This document shows, one piece after another, positions 44,804 to 53,283 of a stretch of 64,000 nt of DNA (the stretch's first letter is position 1; every line of letters begins with the position of its first letter). Source of the DNA: Candidatus Bathyarchaeia archaeon (GTDB lineage: Archaea > Thermoproteota > Bathyarchaeia > Bathyarchaeales > Bathycorpusculaceae); assembly GCA_049512935.1 (NCBI GenBank), contig JBEKWR010000005.1, positions 65,394-129,393 on the forward strand. The letters run 5' to 3'. Under the pieces are notes generated by a model. It worked only from the letters and a program-made list of their open reading frames with translations, searched no databases and was not told the origin of the DNA. A program made the translations under genes and the position numbers.

Positions 44804-45484
44804 CTATTGCCCCCTGACCTCGGCGGGCATGTAATCATAAACGATCCCTCGCTGGATGGCTCTTTTCAGGTATGCCTCAGGGTCGATTTCCTGGACCTTC
44901 GCGTGGTCAACGTCGATAATGTAGATTTCGTGAATGCGCGCGTTTTTTATCTCTTCAAGCGTAACAGGCGGCCTCTGATAGTACGCGTCGCAGAGCCTTT
45001 TTATCTGCTGGATTTCCCAGTCTTCACGGTTCCTGGGCGGTTTGGCGAGCGCACGGGGAAACGGCAGGATATAGTGGGGAGGCACGCCCAACGCGAATTT
45101 TCCCGCGAAGCTGCTGTACCGTATTATTTTGCTTGCTAACCGAGCTGAAGTGTACGTTAACGGCGCCAGTGCGTTTTCAGGCGGAATGAAGCCTGTTTCA
45201 ACCTCTACGATAAGGTTTCCTAACCCTTTTGTGGCGAAAAGGTCGCAGGTTAAAATTTCGTTCAGTTTGTTTTCAATTTGAACCTCGTAGCCCTTTTCAA
45301 TCAGGTACTTTGCGCATACAAGCTCGTTTACGGAGTGGTTGATTTTTACGATGTTTTCTTTGCGCAGGTTCACCAGGCAGTTTTTGAGGAAGCCGAGTTT
45401 GTTTTTGACTTGCTCGTCGCAGTCGCTTGTTAGCCTAGAGAGTAAAGTCGTTAAATCATCTTCGAACTCTTGCCTGCTGCTCAT
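44804..45484 (-). CDS. Hypothetical protein with a PD-(D/E)XK nuclease-like core
   Basis: H..NE, GYEVQIE, CDLFA, IVEVETG pattern. Co-oriented with the GIY-YIG gene 5 nt away. Confidence 0.65.
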   Translation of the reverse strand: MSSRQEFEDDLTTLLSRLTSDCDEQVKNKLGFLKNCLVNLRKENIVKINHSVNELVCAKYLIEKGYEVQIENKLNEILTCDLFATKGLGNLIVEVETGFIPPENALAPLTYTSARLASKIIRYSSFAGKFALGVPPHYILPFPRALAKPPRNREDWEIQQIKRLCDAYYQRPPVTLEEIKNARIHEIYIIDVDHAKVQEIDPEAYLKRAIQRGIVYDYMPAEVRGQ

Positions 45485-45623
45485 TTACGTTTCCTTTCCA
45501 AGTTGACTTGCCCTTTGCACTTAAACTATTTGGTTTCGAAAATATATAAACTCAGAAACGCGCTGGGTGTTGAATCATTCTGTGCACAACTACGCTTATA
45601 TAGAATTTCTGCGCATTTATACA

Positions 45624-45803
45624 GTGTCCAAGTTGAGGAGCAGGCTGAAAGTCAACTAAGCTTGGCTCGGTGTAAATATTAACTTCACCGCTTGGCGCTG
45701 TCTCGGCGAAAAGTGAACGGGACACATGTTTCCCGGGGTTTAGTTAACCAGCTGGCTGAACCTTGCTAGTTGCTCAGGCTTTGACTCAACTTGGCATCCT
45801 TTT
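45624..45803 (+). ncRNA. Putative multi-branched structured ncRNA (about 180 nt)
   Basis: TATA CTTATATA at 45595-45602. Terminal 10-bp helix CCAAGTTGAG/CTCAACTTGG, several internal hairpins with G-U pairs, then TTTT. Confidence 0.6.
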
Positions 45804-45900
45804 GCTTACAGAAGCCGCATGTAAAGGGTAGACAGGGGTCGGCGGTTTTTTGTTGGGTTTGTTTTGGGTTGATTTTGTGGTTTGGGGCTTGTGGCGTTTG

Positions 45901-45991
45901 CAGGTCACGTTCTTTCCCGTGGAATCCCGTGGATTAGCGTTGTTTCCCGTTTTTTCCCGTTCATTACCGTTTCTTAGCGTTTTGGCAACGT
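45901..45991. repeat. Helically phased array of 10-bp units ending in CGT
   Basis: Eight consecutive decamers end in CGT; a ninth follows at 11 bp. Confidence 0.85.
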
Positions 45992-46053
45992 ATTCAGTTA
46001 GTGAATTATTCAGCAAGTGAATACAAACTGAGACTTGTTGATCGCTACCTCGC

Positions 46054-46239
46054 CTATGGCTTTATGGACGAGAGCACAAGCCGTGTGTTGGGCACGTCCA
46101 CATCCACAATCTTGCAACCTTTGAACTCTTTCGCTTCCCCAAGGATGCTTTTGACTGTCACGTTGTCGCCTTCGACTTTAGCGTAGATTACATCTTTAAA
46201 CTGGGTTTTCCCATCAAGGATAACGTTAAATTCACACAT
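46054..46239 (-). CDS. CooT-family nickel-binding protein
   Basis: MCEF start, DVI, ILGE, 61 aa. Confidence 0.8.
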   Translation of the reverse strand: MCEFNVILDGKTQFKDVIYAKVEGDNVTVKSILGEAKEFKGCKIVDVDVPNTRLVLSSIKP

Positions 46240-46484
46240 GAATCTTCACTGCTAGCAAAAAGAGAATTGTCGGTAATAAGCGTTTTATGGAAACAACTAA
46301 CTGTTCCTGAGAAACCTTTACTTATATCAGCTTAAGGCTTTTTGAGGAAAAGCGGTCTTGAGTCGCCTTTACTAAGTTAAAGCGGCAGAGGAAAAGTGTA
46401 AACTTCAGGGGCAGTTCAGCGTGGACACCGTAAACTTTTTATGTTTACATGGCTGATTCTTTAGAGTACGCGGTATTAAGAGGC

Positions 46485-46541
46485 ATGAAAATGAGGGATT
46501 GTCACCTCCATAGCTGGAATCGTCGGGTACTTATTCTTTGA
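46485..46541 (+). CDS. Putative ilvB leader peptide MKMRDCHLHSWNRRVLIL
   Basis: GAGG at 46480-46483, ATGs at 46485 and 46491, ending GTA CTT ATT CTT TGA within a long ilvB leader. Confidence 0.5.
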   Translation: MKMRDCHLHSWNRRVLIL

Positions 46542-46640
46542 TTCTCCCAGGAAACCCTCTGAAAAAGCCGCGTCAAAATTTGCAATCATTTCTTCCCGAG
46601 ACGAGGGTATATTTGTTGGAAAAGGAGAAAGCGATGAAAA

Positions 46641-48347
46641 ATGACTAGAATGTCTGGTGCGCAAGCACTGTTAGAATCTCTTGAACGGCAAAACGTGAAC
46701 ACCATATTCGGCATCTTAGGCGGAGCCATCCTGCCAGTTTACGACGCTTTATTGGGCAGCACGAAAATCAGGCATATCCTTGCTAGGCACGAGCAATGCG
46801 CAGCGCATGAAGCCGAAGGCTACGCACGAGCCAGCGGGCGAGTCGGAGTCTGCATGGCAACTTCAGGTCCTGGAGCGACCAACCTGGTTACGGGCATAGC
46901 GAACGCGTACATGGATTCTTCACCCATAGTGGCATTGACAGGACAGGTTCCATCCAAAGCCGTTAACTCGTCCTACATGATCGGCAAAGACGCCTTCCAA
47001 GAAGCAGACATCATCGGCATCACAACCCCAATCACGAAGTACAATTTCCAGCCAAGAACCGTCGCTGAAATTCCGACGATCGTTAACACGGCGTTCTACA
47101 TTGCGTCCACGGGCAGGCCGGGACCAGTTCTGATTGATCTGCCAAAGGACGTGCAGTCAGACATGGGTGAGGTGGAGGTGACTGACAAGATCGAAGCCCG
47201 CGGTTACAAGTCAATGATCGAGATAGACTTAACAAAGATTAGCGAAGCCGCCAGTTTGCTTGTCAGTGCGGAGCGACCCCTGATTCTGTCAGGCGGCGGA
47301 GTCATAATCTCGAACGCTTCAGACGAAATCATGGAGATGTCTGACTTGCTGATGGCGCCGGTCGCCACAACACTTATGGGCAAAGGCTCTTTCCCCGAAG
47401 TACACCCCCTATCGGTCGGAAGCATAGGGATGCATGGAAACCCGGCGGCGAACAGGCTGCTGGGTGAAGCCGACGTGCTTCTGGCTGTGGGAACAAGATT
47501 CTCTGATCGTGCAACGGCAAACCTGGACACTTTCGCGTCTGAAGCCAAGAAGATACACATCGACATTGACGAGGCAGAAATCGGCAAAAACGTCGAGGTC
47601 GAAGTGCCCATAGTCGGCGACGCCAAAACCGTCTTGAAACTTTTGTTAGCCGCCTTAGCCGATAAATTGCATAAAGGTGAAGGAACCGCTTGGACAAAAC
47701 GGGTTAAAGAGGCAAAAGAGAAGCTGAGTCCGCTGCTGAAGGATAGACCCCGAGACATCGTTCCGAAAGCGTTGCTGATGGAGTTAAGGAAACTGCTGCC
47801 TGAAAGCGCGATAGTCACCACGGAGGTTGGGCAAAACCAGATGTGGTCGGCTCTGTACTTCCAAGCCCTAAGGCCTAGAAGCTTCATCAGCTCAGGCGGG
47901 TTAGGAACCATGGGCTTCGGTTTCCCAGCGGCAATCGGCGCAAAAGTCGCCTGCCCAGACAGACCAGTCGTTGACATAGCGGGCGACGGCAGCTTCATAA
48001 TGAGCGAACAGGAACTCGCATGCTCCGTCACGGAAAAGATTCCCGTCACCGTCATAGTGCTGAACAATTCGGTGCTGGGCATGGTGGCGCAGTGGCAGAG
48101 AATGCTCTACAAACGCCGCTACATGGCTGTTCATCTGGGTAAAACGCCTGACTTCGTAAAGCTGGCTGAGGCTTACGGAGCGCAGGGGCTGCGGGCAACG
48201 TCAATCGAGGAATTCCACAAAGCAGTTAAGACAGCACTTGACAGTAAGGTTACCACGGTGATCGATGTGCCTATAGGCTCAGAGCATGACGTCGTGCCCT
48301 TTGTGCCTCCAGGCTGCGGTTTACCGCAACAGAGAGGTGACTACTAA
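46641..48347 (+). CDS. ilvB: Acetolactate synthase large subunit
   Basis: RHEQ, TSGPGATN, DAFQE, GDGSF..NN ThDP motif, GMVAQWQ. Confidence 0.97.
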   Translation: MTRMSGAQALLESLERQNVNTIFGILGGAILPVYDALLGSTKIRHILARHEQCAAHEAEGYARASGRVGVCMATSGPGATNLVTGIANAYMDSSPIVALTGQVPSKAVNSSYMIGKDAFQEADIIGITTPITKYNFQPRTVAEIPTIVNTAFYIASTGRPGPVLIDLPKDVQSDMGEVEVTDKIEARGYKSMIEIDLTKISEAASLLVSAERPLILSGGGVIISNASDEIMEMSDLLMAPVATTLMGKGSFPEVHPLSVGSIGMHGNPAANRLLGEADVLLAVGTRFSDRATANLDTFASEAKKIHIDIDEAEIGKNVEVEVPIVGDAKTVLKLLLAALADKLHKGEGTAWTKRVKEAKEKLSPLLKDRPRDIVPKALLMELRKLLPESAIVTTEVGQNQMWSALYFQALRPRSFISSGGLGTMGFGFPAAIGAKVACPDRPVVDIAGDGSFIMSEQELACSVTEKIPVTVIVLNNSVLGMVAQWQRMLYKRRYMAVHLGKTPDFVKLAEAYGAQGLRATSIEEFHKAVKTALDSKVTTVIDVPIGSEHDVVPFVPPGCGLPQQRGDY

Positions 48348-48859
48348 TGGAAGCTGGAAGAACCAAAATAATTTCGGTGCTCGTCGAAAACAAGCCGGGT
48401 GTGCTCTTCGGGGTTTCAAACCTGTTCCGACGTAGAAACTTTAACATCGAAAGCATCACGGTCGGCCCGAGCGAGCAAAAGGACATGGCGCGGATGACAA
48501 TAACCGTCAACGAGGATGAAAGAACAATCGTCCAAGTCGTCAAGCAAGTCGCGAAACTCATCGATGTGCTTAAAGTCGAGGAGCTGGAGCCTGGAAACTT
48601 TGTGATGCGGGAGCTGGCTTTGATAAAAGTTAACGCGCCAACCGCGAAAGATCGCTCCGACATCATCAACTGCGTTGAAGTCTTCCGAGGGCGAATCATC
48701 GACGTTTCAACCGACAGTTTAACCGTGGAAATCACGGGGACACCTGACAAGCTAGACGCGTTCCTAAACCTGATGAAGGCGACAGGAGTCATTGAACTTG
48801 CAAGAACAGGCATAACCGCGTTGGCAAGAGGAGCAAAATCCGTGAGAATAGACGAATAA
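48347..48859 (+). CDS. ilvN: Acetolactate synthase small regulatory subunit
   Basis: VENKPGVL, RRNFNIESITV, RELALIKV, ELARTG. Confidence 0.96.
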   Translation: MEAGRTKIISVLVENKPGVLFGVSNLFRRRNFNIESITVGPSEQKDMARMTITVNEDERTIVQVVKQVAKLIDVLKVEELEPGNFVMRELALIKVNAPTAKDRSDIINCVEVFRGRIIDVSTDSLTVEITGTPDKLDAFLNLMKATGVIELARTGITALARGAKSVRIDE

Positions 48860-48902
48860 ACCGCCTCTGTGAACGGAAACCCTTAATTTCAAGTTTTCTT
48901 AA

Positions 48903-48920
48903 AATGACAAACTTGTCATT
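48903..48920. promoter_or_regulatory. Palindrome (operator or hairpin) just downstream of the leuC TATA box
   Basis: AATGACAA-AC-TTGTCATT; CTTAAT at 48882-48887. Confidence 0.5.
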
Positions 48921-48964
48921 GTTATCGGCAGCAAAAAAGCAACTGATAGAAGAAGAGAGTAAAA

Positions 48965-50233
48965 ATGAACATAACAGAAAAAATCTTGGCTAAAGCTTCG
49001 GGAAAAGAAGCCGTGCATCCAGGAGAAATAGTCGACGCGAACGTTGACATGGTGATGGTGCACGATTTAACTGGACCTTTAGCCGTTGAAGCCTTCAAGA
49101 AAATAGGCGTACAGAAAGTTTGGGATAGCCAAAAAGTAGTGGTTATACTGGACCATCAGGTACCAGCTGAATCCATCAGAGCTGCGGAACTGCACAAGAC
49201 CATGCGTCAATTCGCCAAAGACCAGAAACTGCGCATATACGACGTCGGCAGAGGCGGAATCTGCCATCAAGTCATGCCTGAGAAGGGGCATGTTGTTCCT
49301 GGAACAGTTATCGTAGGCGCCGACTCGCACACTTGCACCTACGGAGCCTTCGGAGCCTTCGCCACGGGAATAGGCTCAACCGAGGCAGCGGCGGTTATGG
49401 CGACGGGGAAGATTTGGCTGAAAGTACCTAAGGCGATAAAAGTAAACGTGACGGGGAAGTTCCCAAAGTACGTTACTCCAAAAGACCTGATCTTATCCAT
49501 AATCGGCAAATTAAGTGTAGAGGGCGCCATATACGAAAGCGCTGAATTCACCGGTCCAACAATCAAGGACATGAGCATAGCGGGAAGAATGACGCTGTGC
49601 AACATGGCGGTTGAGATGGGCGCTAAAAACGGCATCATCGAACCTGACGAAACAACCCGTGAATTCTTAAAGGGAAGAGTCAAAACCCTGCCGAACTTTG
49701 AAGAACTAAAAAGCGACAAAGACGCCGTTTATCGACGCACCGTGAACTTTGATGTTTCAAAGATGGAGCCCCAGATTGCTTGCCCATCGTCGGTAGACAA
49801 CGTGAAGCCAGTTTCAGAAGTAGGCAACGTCCAGATTGAGCAAGCGTTCATCGGGTCATGCACCAACGGCAGAATCGAAGATTTACGCATCGCCGCTCAA
49901 ATCCTAAAAGGCAGACGCCTAAAAGACGGCGTCAGGGCACTGGTGATTCCAGCGTCGCAGGAAGTTTACAAGCAAGCATTAGACGAAGGCTTAATGGAAA
50001 CCTTTACAGATGCAGGCGCGATGGTCTGCGGTTCAGCTTGCGGACCATGCTTGGGCGGGCACATAGGGTTATTGGCGGCGGGCGAAACTTGCGTTAGCAC
50101 TTCAAACAGGAACTTCATCGGAAGAATGGGCAGCACCCAAGCCAGCGTGTACTTAGCTTCCCCAGCAACGGTAGCTGCTTCAGCCGTAACAGGTAAAATC
50201 ACCGACCCGAGAAAACTGGAGGCAAAAGCATGA
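48965..50233 (+). CDS. leuC: 3-isopropylmalate dehydratase/homoaconitase large subunit
   Basis: GADSHTCT, IGSCTNGR, CGPCLG, STSNRNF.GRMG. Confidence 0.93.
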   Translation: MNITEKILAKASGKEAVHPGEIVDANVDMVMVHDLTGPLAVEAFKKIGVQKVWDSQKVVVILDHQVPAESIRAAELHKTMRQFAKDQKLRIYDVGRGGICHQVMPEKGHVVPGTVIVGADSHTCTYGAFGAFATGIGSTEAAAVMATGKIWLKVPKAIKVNVTGKFPKYVTPKDLILSIIGKLSVEGAIYESAEFTGPTIKDMSIAGRMTLCNMAVEMGAKNGIIEPDETTREFLKGRVKTLPNFEELKSDKDAVYRRTVNFDVSKMEPQIACPSSVDNVKPVSEVGNVQIEQAFIGSCTNGRIEDLRIAAQILKGRRLKDGVRALVIPASQEVYKQALDEGLMETFTDAGAMVCGSACGPCLGGHIGLLAAGETCVSTSNRNFIGRMGSTQASVYLASPATVAASAVTGKITDPRKLEAKA

Positions 50234-50733
50234 ATATGAAAATCAAAGGTCCAGCCATAAAACTCGGAAACAACGTTGACACAGACGTCATTCTGCCCGG
50301 ACAATACTTGACGTTGATTGACCCTTACGAGCTGGCAAAGCATGCCCTAGCAGGCTTAGATCCAGCGTTTCCTGAGAAAGCAAAAAAAGGCGTGATCTTG
50401 GTAGGCGGGAAAAACTTCGGGTGCGGATCCAGCCGAGAACAAGCGCCTTTAGCGCTAAAGTACGCTGGCGTGAAATGCGTGTTAGCTGAATCTTTCGCGC
50501 GGATCTTCTTCCGAAACGCCATAAACATCGGCTTGCCAGTGATCGAGTGCAAGGGCATATCGGCAGCGGTTGAAACGGGTGACGAGTTAGCCGTGGATTT
50601 CGAAGCTGGCAAGGTGGAAAACGTTTCGAAGGGCAAAAAGTTTCAAGTAGAGAAGCTGCCACCGTTCATACTGGAAATATTGGCTGATGGCGGATTAATT
50701 GAGAATTTACGAAGGAGAATGAACAAGAAATGA
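50230..50733 (+). CDS. leuD: 3-isopropylmalate dehydratase/homoaconitase small subunit
   Basis: DTDVILP, NFGCGSSREQA, SFARIFFRN. Confidence 0.93.
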   Translation: MNMKIKGPAIKLGNNVDTDVILPGQYLTLIDPYELAKHALAGLDPAFPEKAKKGVILVGGKNFGCGSSREQAPLALKYAGVKCVLAESFARIFFRNAINIGLPVIECKGISAAVETGDELAVDFEAGKVENVSKGKKFQVEKLPPFILEILADGGLIENLRRRMNKK

Positions 50734-51767
50734 CTGAATACGTGATTTCCCTGATTCCAGGAGACGGGATCGGCCCAGAACTGACAGAGGCAACCTTGAA
50801 GGTTTTGGATGCTGCCCAGAAAAAGTTTGGCATAAAACTGAAAATGGTTGAGGCGGAGGCAGGCGACGGCACCTTGGTGAAAAGAGGCGCGGCGCTTCCT
50901 GCTGACACCGTAGAAAAAATTAAGGCTTCCCACGCTTGCCTAAAGGGTCCAGTGGGCGAAACAGCGGCAGACGTCATAGTTAAGCTCAGGCTGATGTTTG
51001 ATTTGTACGCGAATCTGCGTCCGATCAAGTCTTACCCAGCCGTCCCAGCGGCTAGACCCGACATTGACATGCTGTGGGTCAGAGAAAACACTGAGGACGT
51101 TTACAAAGGCTTAGAGTTCACCCTCGACAACGACACAACGCTGTGCCTAAGAGTCATCACCCGAAGGAACTGCCAGCGCATAGCCAAAAAAGCCTTCGAA
51201 ATGGCTCGGCTGCGAAACGGCAAGAAGAAGGTGACCGCCGTTCACAAGGCAAACGTCATGCGGGTAACTGACGGGCTATTTGCCAGCGTGTGCCGAGAAA
51301 CGGCGAAGCAGTACCCAGACATCGCCTTTAACGAACTGTACGTTGACGCCGCATCTATGCGTCTAATCAAAGAGCCTCAGATATTCGATGTGTTCTGCAC
51401 ATGCAACATGTTCGGCGACATACTAAGCGACGAAGCAGCCCAACTCATCGGCGGACTAGGCATGGCTCCAGGCGCAAACATCGGCGAAAACTTTGCGCTA
51501 TTCGAACCCATCCACGGTTCAGCACCGAACAGGGAAGGAAAACACACGGCAAACCCGATCTCGATGGTTCTGAGCGCAAAGATGATGCTGGAGTGGCTGG
51601 GAGAAAAGTACAACGACCCGAAATGCACTCGGGCAGGCGCGGCAATCGAGAACGGCGTGGTCTACGCTTTGCGTAACGGTCAAACTGTTCCAGACTGCGG
51701 CGGCGACACAACGACCGTGGGAATGGCGGAAGCCATTGCTGCAGCTTTAACAGTGAAAACTGGCTGA
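50730..51767 (+). CDS. leuB: 3-isopropylmalate dehydrogenase (beta-decarboxylating dehydrogenase family)
   Basis: GDGIGPE, GETAADVIVKLR, RENTE, NMFGDILSD, EPIHGSAP. Confidence 0.9.
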   Translation: MTEYVISLIPGDGIGPELTEATLKVLDAAQKKFGIKLKMVEAEAGDGTLVKRGAALPADTVEKIKASHACLKGPVGETAADVIVKLRLMFDLYANLRPIKSYPAVPAARPDIDMLWVRENTEDVYKGLEFTLDNDTTLCLRVITRRNCQRIAKKAFEMARLRNGKKKVTAVHKANVMRVTDGLFASVCRETAKQYPDIAFNELYVDAASMRLIKEPQIFDVFCTCNMFGDILSDEAAQLIGGLGMAPGANIGENFALFEPIHGSAPNREGKHTANPISMVLSAKMMLEWLGEKYNDPKCTRAGAAIENGVVYALRNGQTVPDCGGDTTTVGMAEAIAAALTVKTG

Positions 51768-51771
51768 AAAC

Positions 51772-53283
51772 ATGACAAATAAATACATTCGAATTTTAGA
51801 CACCACCCTGCGGGATGGTGAGCAAACCCCCGGGGTTTCTTTGACCCCTGAAGACAAGATCGAGATTGCGCGCCAACTAGCCAAATTGGGCGTTGACGTT
51901 ATCGAAGCTGGTTTTCCAAGCTCTTCCGAGGGCGAAAAAAAGGTCGTTAAAGAAATTGCCAAAATGGGCTTAGACTCTGAAATCTGCGCGCTGTCACGGG
52001 CTACTAGGGGCGATATCGACGCGGCGCTGGAGTGCGATGTCGATTTGATTCACGTTTTCATCCCAACTTCCCCAGTGCAGATGCGGTACGCGGTGAACTT
52101 GACGCCTGAGCAGGTTTTGGCGTCGGCTGTTGACTCCGTTGAGTACGTGAAGAAGCACGACGTAAAATGCGAGTTTTCACCCATGGACGCCACACGCTCC
52201 GAAATGCCCTTCCTAAAGCAAGTGTGCCAAGCCACTGAAAAAGCTGGAATGGACACCCTAAACCTTCCAGACACGGTCGGCATAATGATTCCTAAAACAA
52301 CCATAAAATTCGTTGAAGAAATAAAATCAGTCGTCAACGTTCCAATAAGCATCCACTGCCACGACGACTTCGGCTTAGCAGTAGCAAACTCGCTGGCTGC
52401 CGTCGAAGCAGGCGCTGCACAGGTGCACGTTGCCGTCAATGGACTGGGCGAACGCGCGGGCAACGCCTCGCTAGAAGAGGTGGTTATGGCGCTGCAGGTA
52501 ATCTACAAGTACAAGACAGGCGTAAACTCGCGCTTGCTTTACAGCACATCCCGACTGGTTTCTTCGTTGACGGGCATCGCCGTGCAGGCTAACAAGGCGC
52601 TGGTGGGCGAAAACGCTTTTGCGCACGAATCAGGCATCCACACGCGCGGAGTAACAGAGAAGCCCTTAACGTTCGAACCGATAGATCCCGCGTTGGTGGG
52701 TCGCACAAGAAAACTTGTCGCTGGGAAACTGGCGGGGACACGCGGCATCAAGGCGGAGCTTGACGAAGTCGGCATTCACCCAACGGAGGAGCAGCTGAAA
52801 GAGATTGTCAGACGCGTCAAGGAACTTGGCGACAAAGGCAAAATGGTCACGGACGCTGACCTGCTGGCTTTGACTTCAGCGGTTATAGGTGAAGTCATTG
52901 GCGAAGAAAAAATCGTTGACCTCTGCGACATGGCAGTTGTGACAGGCATCAAAGTCATACCGACAGCCTCGGTGCGGCTGGTTCTGAACGGAAAAGCGTA
53001 CGTTGCCGCGGAAACAGGCGTCGGTCCAGTTGACGCGGTTCTTAAGGCGATTCAGAAGTTAACCAGCAACCTGGAAGAAATCCGCCTCAGAGAGTACCGT
53101 CTTGAAGCAATCACGGGCGGCTCAAACGCTGTGGCGGAAGTTATCATAAAGGTGGAAGACGAGGAAGGCAACGTTGTGTCGGCTCGCGCGGCAAGAGAGG
53201 ACATCGTGATGGCCAGCGTTGAAGCGATGATAAACGGCATAAACAAGCTTCTGATTAAGCATAAGCAGGGAAACAAACCATGA
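51772..53283 (+). CDS. leuA: 2-isopropylmalate synthase / citramalate synthase family protein
   Basis: DTTLRDGEQ, HCHDD, GERAGN, HESGIH, and a C-terminal regulatory domain (GVGPVDA). CimA is not excluded. Confidence 0.8.
   Translation: MTNKYIRILDTTLRDGEQTPGVSLTPEDKIEIARQLAKLGVDVIEAGFPSSSEGEKKVVKEIAKMGLDSEICALSRATRGDIDAALECDVDLIHVFIPTSPVQMRYAVNLTPEQVLASAVDSVEYVKKHDVKCEFSPMDATRSEMPFLKQVCQATEKAGMDTLNLPDTVGIMIPKTTIKFVEEIKSVVNVPISIHCHDDFGLAVANSLAAVEAGAAQVHVAVNGLGERAGNASLEEVVMALQVIYKYKTGVNSRLLYSTSRLVSSLTGIAVQANKALVGENAFAHESGIHTRGVTEKPLTFEPIDPALVGRTRKLVAGKLAGTRGIKAELDEVGIHPTEEQLKEIVRRVKELGDKGKMVTDADLLALTSAVIGEVIGEEKIVDLCDMAVVTGIKVIPTASVRLVLNGKAYVAAETGVGPVDAVLKAIQKLTSNLEEIRLREYRLEAITGGSNAVAEVIIKVEDEEGNVVSARAAREDIVMASVEAMINGINKLLIKHKQGNKP

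Follow-up and report, generated by a model that had tools for sequence, protein, structure and literature searches.

A conserved upstream open reading frame before the ilvB-leuA operon of a Bathyarchaeia archaeon is a candidate ribosome-based sensor of branched-chain amino acid supply

In bacteria, the attenuators of the ilv, leu, and his operons combine a leader peptide with a terminator and an antiterminator, and this mode of amino acid operon control is textbook knowledge. To our knowledge, leader-peptide control has not been documented in Archaea, where transcription and translation are coupled and transcription termination differs from that of bacteria. This work examines a 64,000-nucleotide (nt) stretch of DNA from Candidatus Bathyarchaeia archaeon, an organism known only through metagenome assemblies (contig JBEKWR010000005.1, positions 65,394 to 129,393 of the forward strand; referred to here as the window), in which an ilvBN-leuCDBA operon is preceded by a leader containing a 16-codon upstream open reading frame (uORF). 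We propose, with a probability of roughly 0.6, that this uORF is translated and serves as a ribosome-based sensor of charged tRNA for Leu, Val, and possibly Ile. Among described systems, those closest to the window leader include the Corynebacterium ilvBNC attenuator (PMC11857589), attenuators surveyed across Actinobacteria (PMC1262725), and the cysteine-responsive polycysteine short open reading frames (ORFs) of mycobacteria (bioRxiv 10.1101/834739). The passages returned by full-text literature searches included no archaeal leader-peptide attenuator.

Like the bacterial ilv, leu, and his attenuators, the window leader places a short ORF, led by a Shine-Dalgarno (SD) sequence, before the first biosynthetic gene, and this ORF contains codons for the operon's own amino acids; in other orders of Bathyarchaeia, the likeness extends to runs of Val, Ile, and Leu codons followed by a hairpin. 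The window leader differs from them in its archaeal host, in the single invariant candidate codon of each module, set at a constant distance from an RGG-GAU sequence, and in having neither a conserved terminator or antiterminator nor an Rfam leader match. The mycobacterial ORFs are likewise very short, 5'-proximal uORFs that report a single amino acid and tune a downstream operon. However, they are leaderless, carry runs of Cys codons, and occur in a bacterium, whereas the uORF described here is SD led and would rely on single sensed codons.

Conservation within the genus was gauged on ilvB orthologues collected through the protein rather than through the motif (a match was found in 24/24 other congeneric genomes), so the conservation of the leaders carries no ascertainment bias. 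The genus alignment comprises 23 leaders, namely, loci from 22 congeners together with the window's own. In 23/23 leaders, the promoter box, the SD sequence AAGAGG (46478..46483, + strand), and the ATG at 46491 with the 39 nt that follow it are almost invariant, while the sequence beyond varies. The first-pass annotation of this DNA had correctly reported an ORF in frame from ATG 46485 to TGA 46539-46541, with GAGG upstream and the ending GTA CTT ATT CTT TGA. The ORF is real and conserved, but its start is not the one reported: ATG 46485 is present in only ~9/23 leaders (alignment read by eye) and sits 1 nt past the SD, which identifies ATG 46491, 7 nt downstream of the SD, as the conserved start. 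The uORF thus spans 46491..46541 on the + strand (16 codons plus stop) and encodes MRDCHLHSWNRRVLIL*.

This uORF contains two modules. Module 1, AGG GAT TGT CAC CTC (46494..46508, + strand), begins with an invariant AGG-GAT at codons 2 and 3, which constitutes an SD-like GAGGGAU immediately 3' of the start codon, and ends with the Leu codon at position 6 (CTC, 46506-46508, + strand), the proposed sensed codon. Module 2, TGG AAT CGT CGG GTA (46515..46529, + strand), repeats module 1 at a distance of 21 nt and ends with the codon for Val13 (46527-46529, + strand). The three tail codons, CTT ATT CTT (46530..46538, + strand), encode Leu-Ile-Leu in the window, whose peptide therefore carries branched-chain amino acids (BCAAs) at codon 6 and as V-L-I-L at codons 13 to 16. 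Across the genus, 42/48 distinct peptides are 16 amino acids long; Leu6 and Val13 are present in every listed peptide and are the only genus-invariant BCAAs, and the last three residues vary widely (LIL, QLL, QLF, HFY, PRN, and others). BCAA codons account for 0.58 of the tail (73/126) when distinct peptides are counted and for 0.50 when 35 distinct 9-mers are, against an expectation of 0.31 from shuffled nucleotides and values of 0.08 and 0.26 in the other two frames. The V-L-I-L ending, read by the first-pass annotation as the sensor, is thus a favored state and not a conserved one: the uORF is kept in orthologous leaders, but a V/L/I tail is not.

An exact-pattern scan for the first 23 nt of the uORF, using one genome per species, retrieved 89 stretches, occurring once each and all of Bathyarchaeia type, and ilvB lies 153 to 167 nt downstream of nearly all of them. 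A search of the window's own genome for a second copy of the core gave a single near match (C6:90976), located where the opposite strand looks protein coding and taken to be due to chance.

The uORF extends well beyond the genus. An ilvB orthologue was detected at an E value of up to 1e-150 in 153/251 genomes of the order, and 90 ilvB upstream regions (60 newly fetched in addition to the first 30 loci) were used as the order set. A uORF with a start codon, RGG, and GA(T/G/A) is present in 83/90 regions. It starts with GTG in 48 cases and ATG in 35, codons 2 and 3 read AGGGAT in 77/83, and codon 6 specifies Leu (59 uORFs) or Val (24 uORFs) in 83/83. An SD-like sequence is found at about -7 in all listed upstream 14-mers, being GGAGG-like in other families; the AAGAGG of the window's genus fits the 16S rRNA 3' end (...GGAUCACCUCCU) of two congeners. 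In all 83 listed peptides, the frame is closed after 6 to 19 codons, the shortest versions being MRDRFL*, MRDRFLR*, and MRDHFLVH*. In the 7 regions lacking the uORF, ilvB is placed 3' of a leuA-like gene, and the uORF was found before that leuA in 3/4 such leuA-ilvB loci examined.

The order of the modules is not fixed. In the window's genus, the Leu module comes first and the Val-ending repeat follows 21 nt later. In several families, however, the uORF reads MRD-x-RV-RR-x-x-(F/Y)-L, that is, a Val module followed by a Leu (sometimes Ile) module, and this arrangement is produced in sister families by an extra, in-frame block of 18 nt. Because modules are swapped and repeated across families, the unit can be defined as RGG, G/A-AU, two free codons, and an amino acid codon. 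In sister families, no sequence conservation was found between the uORF and the ilvB SD.

Two groups within the order show deviating arrangements. In three loci of family f7, genus g16 (L180, L181, and L183), a leuA-like gene opens the operon and ilvB comes next. The uORF there, MRDHWVLEGQKMGDRFIH*, comprises two modules, and it overlaps the open frame of leuA; in 2/3 of these loci, no in-frame ATG, GTG, or TTG was seen before the conserved leuA N terminus. In loci from genera g20, g24, g25, g32, and g48 (L140-L146), the uORF follows directly after the stop codon of an upstream gene (peptide ending in ...FWYETRPEG-) with no visible promoter box, and the leader may sit in a longer transcript in these genomes.

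A second leader of the same design precedes a histidine biosynthesis gene. Scanning the window's own genome for a start-RGG-GAY motif gave 53 matches, 11 of which lie outside long ORFs with a gene downstream. The ilvB and hisG leaders, both conserved, are among these 11. The twin uORF (MRDCVH...), at G000:C1:51812-51877 and thus outside the window, lies ~170 nt 5' of a hisG-like gene. Upstream regions of 49 long-form hisG genes (L187-L216, L257-L273, L281, and L283) were compared, comprising 30 loci from the order, 17 from a second order, and 2 from a third; one locus with only 28 nt of upstream sequence was dropped. His is encoded at codon 6 in 47/49 uORFs (46 by script and L214 by eye) and at codon 7 in the remaining two. 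CAC encodes this His in 24 uORFs and CAT in 23, and the start codon is ATG in 32, GTG in 10, and TTG in 5. In 14 cases, the uORF stops right after His (e.g., MREYIH*). Short-form hisG genes of the third order had no such uORF at 9 loci. The interchange of start codons and the synonymous change of the His codon, together with a near absence of synonymous change in AGG-GAT, argue that the frame is decoded and that the G-rich stretch matters as RNA. In support of the latter, AGG-GAT persists almost without synonymous change while the residues that it encodes differ by leader type (R or G; D, Y, E, or N), which points to a constraint on the RNA.

For the other orders of the class, 40 ilvB upstream regions were fetched (L217-L256) and 39 were analyzed, as one contained only 99 nt. 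Two further forms of leader are found in them. The first is a mini-uORF, M-G-(Y/F/N/C/S)-x-x-(I/V/L), which occurs 20 times in 11 ilvB loci of four families. Its codon 6 is Ile in 14, Val in 3, and Leu in 3 (20/20), and three unrelated ORFs starting with MG carry no BCAA at codon 6. One ilvB leader contains three mini-uORFs in tandem, reading Val, Leu, and Ile. The second form is a short ORF in which at least five of six consecutive codons specify BCAAs, present in 16/39 regions compared with 0/39 reverse complements and 9.1% of shuffles. Nine regions reach 6/6 BCAA codons, compared with 0.6% of shuffles, and the encoded peptides end in, e.g., VVVIII, LIVVVLLV, or VVVLIL. In most of 12 such leaders that were folded, a strong hairpin is predicted to start 0 to 3 nt past the stop codon. 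In addition, codon 6 specifies Trp in two trpE leaders of the second order (L276 and L278; the only two examples), whose peptides are MYHLDWIRRSS* and MYQLNWNQSS*. In the window's own genome, trpE (G000:C3:66210-67655, minus strand) shows a TATA-like box and lacks a leader of this kind. Leader-peptide logic before amino acid operons thus appears to be widespread in the class, with the window representing one variant.

In summary of the comparative evidence, the window and its relatives contain an SD-led, closed, and conserved frame near the predicted 5' end of the transcript, and fixed codons of this frame specify amino acids of the operon's own pathway. The frame has the hallmarks of translation (alternating start codons, an SD at about -7, closure by a stop codon, and an 18-nt insertion that keeps the frame), and its codon matches the operon: Leu or Val before ilvB, His before hisG, Ile, Val, or Leu in the mini-uORFs, and Trp before trpE in two leaders. 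The fixed Leu or Val codon before ilvB or the first gene of the operon, the BCAA uORFs of other orders, and the His twin together support a leader-peptide type of element tied to BCAA supply.

Several observations weigh against this reading. Both the transcript start and the translation of the uORF are predicted from sequence, and since the genomes are related, the counts do not represent independent events. Classical bacterial leaders have many more sensed codons than the single invariant one proposed per module here, and both trp uORFs lack an RGG codon. In genera where the uORF lies directly behind another gene, protection of a 5' end fits poorly. In 44/47 hisG leaders, a second TTCAY follows the first by 19 nt; it is out of frame or beyond the uORF, so decoding cannot explain it. 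The genus alignment contains no conserved terminator hairpin, antiterminator, or anti-SD helix, and the window leader folds no better than shuffled sequences (z score of +0.56). Partition-function folds were computed with the footprint of a ribosome masked, either stalled with its A site on codon 6 or terminating at the stop, and the mean accessibility of the ilvB SD over the 23 leaders was 0.51 in the free state, 0.49 in the stalled state, and 0.51 in the terminating state. Finally, runs of at least four T downstream of the uORF occur in 91% of leaders compared with 43% of mononucleotide shuffles, a mild excess over a weak null.

The out-of-frame second TTCAY and the repeat in the ilvB leader indicate that an element repeated at the RNA or DNA level plays a part as well. 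On one account, direct repeats 3' of the promoter would bind an operon-specific repressor as a DNA operator, and the uORF would be incidental. This account draws on the spacing of the repeats, since two copies of GGGATCGTC lie 21 bp apart upstream of ilvB and two copies of TTCAY lie 19 bp apart upstream of hisG (about two helical turns in both cases), as well as on the second hisG repeat not being decoded in frame and on conservation at the nucleotide level. It leaves unexplained, however, the interchange of ATG, GTG, and TTG, the conserved SD, the synonymous CAC and CAT codons, the match between codon and operon, and the tandem arrangement of distinct uORFs for Val, Leu, and Ile; moreover, AGG-GAT is common to two operons that would need different effectors. 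An operator in place of a sensor is therefore unlikely, although an operator or a direct RNA-binding partner is possible as a second layer of control. A programmed +1 frameshift into the second hisG repeat was also considered and dropped, as the preceding codon is not conserved.

The same conservation, which is stronger than coding needs require, could reflect a structured RNA that binds a ligand or uncharged tRNA in the manner of a riboswitch or T-box, with the codon-like triplets acting as specifiers. T-box leaders similarly carry an amino acid-specific triplet in the 5' leader of biosynthesis genes, and the second TTCAY of hisG leaders lies in or beside a hairpin with compensatory stem changes between lineages (judged by eye, with no statistics). 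On the other hand, the triplet here is in frame, 15 nt past an SD-led start codon, and the conserved start codon and SD point to ribosomes. Searching 45400-46800 against Rfam at an E value of up to 10 returned only t44 and a snoRNA (E value of ~6), both outside the leader, and nine related leaders gave no match at an E value of up to 1. The ilvB consensus shows no two-sided change at any pair, the folding energy is ordinary, and minimal versions of the element consist of a 6-codon uORF (MRDRFL*). Taken together, these observations make a structured RNA sensor quite improbable.

The first-pass annotation had proposed a translational switch, in which a ribosome stalled on V-L-I-L covers TTCTCC, directly after the uORF stop, and thereby frees the ilvB SD GGAGAA and turns on translation of ilvBN. 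As in ermC translational attenuation, a ribosome paused in a leader ORF would alter expression of the downstream gene. The complementary segments are present in the window as described (TTCTCC at 46542-46547 with GGAGAA at 46624-46629, and, nested within, ACCCTC at 46554-46559 with GAGGGT at 46603-46608). The tail of the genus peptides is BCAA enriched, and the hairpins right past the stop of BCAA-run peptides in other orders show that such logic exists in the class. Nevertheless, some tails read HFY or PRN, only one leader besides the window's own contains TTCTCC (L014; sequences read by eye), and the two helices together pair 63.4% of cells across the 23 leaders compared with 63.0% in shuffles, 159/500 of which score at least as high. 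Unlike in ermC, therefore, no SD-sequestering helix is conserved and no switch is predicted: the accessibility of the window's own ilvB SD is 0.38 in all three ribosome states, and in the minimum-energy fold, this SD pairs with a stretch other than TTCTCC. We regard the proposed unmasking as highly improbable.

An alternative pairing of TCGTCGGG (46520-46527) with CCC-GA-GACGA (46595-46604), also put forward in the first-pass annotation, fares better in part. It is present, and its TCGTC/GACGA portion is paired in 83.7% of cells compared with 37.5 to 63.0% when slid, but it shows no two-sided change. RNAalifold, applied to the genus alignment, returned only short, invariant helices, none of them covarying: the uORF SD with CCTCT (46556-46560), GAGG with CCTC inside the uORF, and a small hairpin in module 2. 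The consensus contains no terminator hairpin with a U run between the uORF and ilvB, and neither RNAalifold nor the paired-cell counts over the 23 leaders revealed covarying, mutually exclusive helices.

A ribosome-based sensor at this locus would consist of two units, each comprising RGG, GAU or AAU, two free codons, and the sensed codon. A shortage of the cognate charged tRNA would make the ribosome pause at the sensed codons, near the mRNA 5' end. The SD-like GAGGGAU may act as a brake in this process. Its 3' end lies 6 nt upstream of codon 5, the usual spacing between an SD and the P site (7 nt for the uORF itself), so that it could hold a ribosome whose P site contains codon 5 and whose A site contains codon 6. 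As the trp uORFs lack RGG, such a brake would not be universal. Two outputs are considered the most likely. A stalled ribosome might shield the 5' end of the mRNA, or it might alter hairpin-independent premature termination at the U-rich tract 5' of the AGACGA box; archaeal termination may need no hairpin. Because no downstream structure is conserved, both are ranked above unmasking of the ilvB SD. Shielding has a counterpart in the 5' stabilizers of Bacillus, where a stalled ribosome or an SD-like sequence holds a ribosome near the 5' end, and a ribosome held in this way could explain the lack of downstream conservation in sister families. However, archaeal decay enzymes differ. The same resemblance to ribosome-binding stabilizers, by virtue of a strong SD and the SD-like GAGGGAU near the 5' end, would also suit a constitutive leader that loads or positions ribosomes as an enhancer or stabilizer and senses no amino acid. 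An operon-specific codon at a fixed position would be unexpected for a generic enhancer, and a constitutive role is accordingly very unlikely.

More broadly, and tentatively, the leaders may belong to a Bathyarchaeia family of fixed-codon sensor uORFs, in which an RGG brake and a single codon 6 (Leu, Val, or Ile; His; or Trp) would report charged tRNA for the ilv-leu, his, and trp operons. Its modules would be duplicated, swapped, or split, and its output would require neither a terminator hairpin nor an anti-SD helix. The defining features (start, RGG, and cognate codon 6) were drawn from the same data in which they recur (ilvB, 83/83 Leu or Val; hisG, 47/49 His; mini-uORFs, 20/20 Ile, Val, or Leu), so that the definition is a description rather than an independent test.

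If a sensor uORF of this kind operates here, it would be the first leader-peptide control of amino acid genes described in Archaea, with an architecture unlike that of bacteria, and would allow a direct test of whether ribosome position feeds back on expression in Archaea. The leaders form a series, with single-codon modules at one end, tandem Val, Leu, and Ile mini-uORFs in between, and Val/Ile/Leu runs with hairpins at the other. Along with the His twin, this series yields clear codon-swap predictions and provides a rule for annotating the genomes of uncultured Bathyarchaeia.

Other features of the leader are as follows. The promoter box, resembling a transcription factor B recognition element (BRE) and TATA box (ACACCGTAAAC followed by TTTTTAT), occupies 46425..46442 on the + strand. 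Its TTTTTAT (46436-46442) had been noted in the first-pass annotation as TATA-like, and its near invariance in 23/23 congeneric leaders places it beyond chance. AAAA(G/C)NTTTTTAAG-like boxes are found at a comparable distance in the leaders of other families, and the transcript is predicted to start near 46463-46468. Over the ~950 nt 5' of the promoter box (45485-46435), there is no ORF of more than 76 codons on either strand and no Rfam match, and a tRNA scan of the window found none.

Downstream of the uORF, the box CCCAGG-NN-ACCCTCT (46546..46562, + strand) is conserved in the genus and is complementary to the uORF SD (AGAGG) or to the GAGGG past the start codon. This box includes a second in-frame stop, TGA 46560-46562, which follows ACC CTC and lies 21 nt past the uORF stop. 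The uORF of sister genus g21 continues as far as the corresponding CTC TAA, which makes the stop at 46539 in the window's genus look like a later shortening. The AGACGA box (46599..46604, + strand) is also conserved and can pair with the TCGTC of either repeat. The ilvB ribosome-binding region (46624..46652, + strand) contains the SD at 46624-46629 and two ilvB ATG codons, at 46641 and 46650, and the N terminus M-x-x-M-S-G-A is conserved. The ATG best spaced from this SD is a third one, at 46634, which opens a 4-codon mini-ORF that overlaps the ilvB ATG at 46641 and stops at TAG 46646-46648. In some congeners, ATG AAA TGA overlaps the ilvB ATG likewise, an arrangement that may reflect start-stop coupling where ilvB begins.

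The operon proposed to be under leader control extends from ilvB to leuA (46641..53283, + strand). All of its genes are on the + strand and were assigned by NCBIfam matches: ilvB (46641-48347), ilvN (48347-48859), leuC (48965-50233), leuD (50230-50733), a leuB-like dehydrogenase gene (50730-51767), and leuA (51772-53283). Directly 3' of leuA lies a pheA-like gene with a prephenate dehydratase (PDT) domain at G000:C5:118679 (window position ~53286), and the leader may thus govern a gene of the Phe pathway as well.

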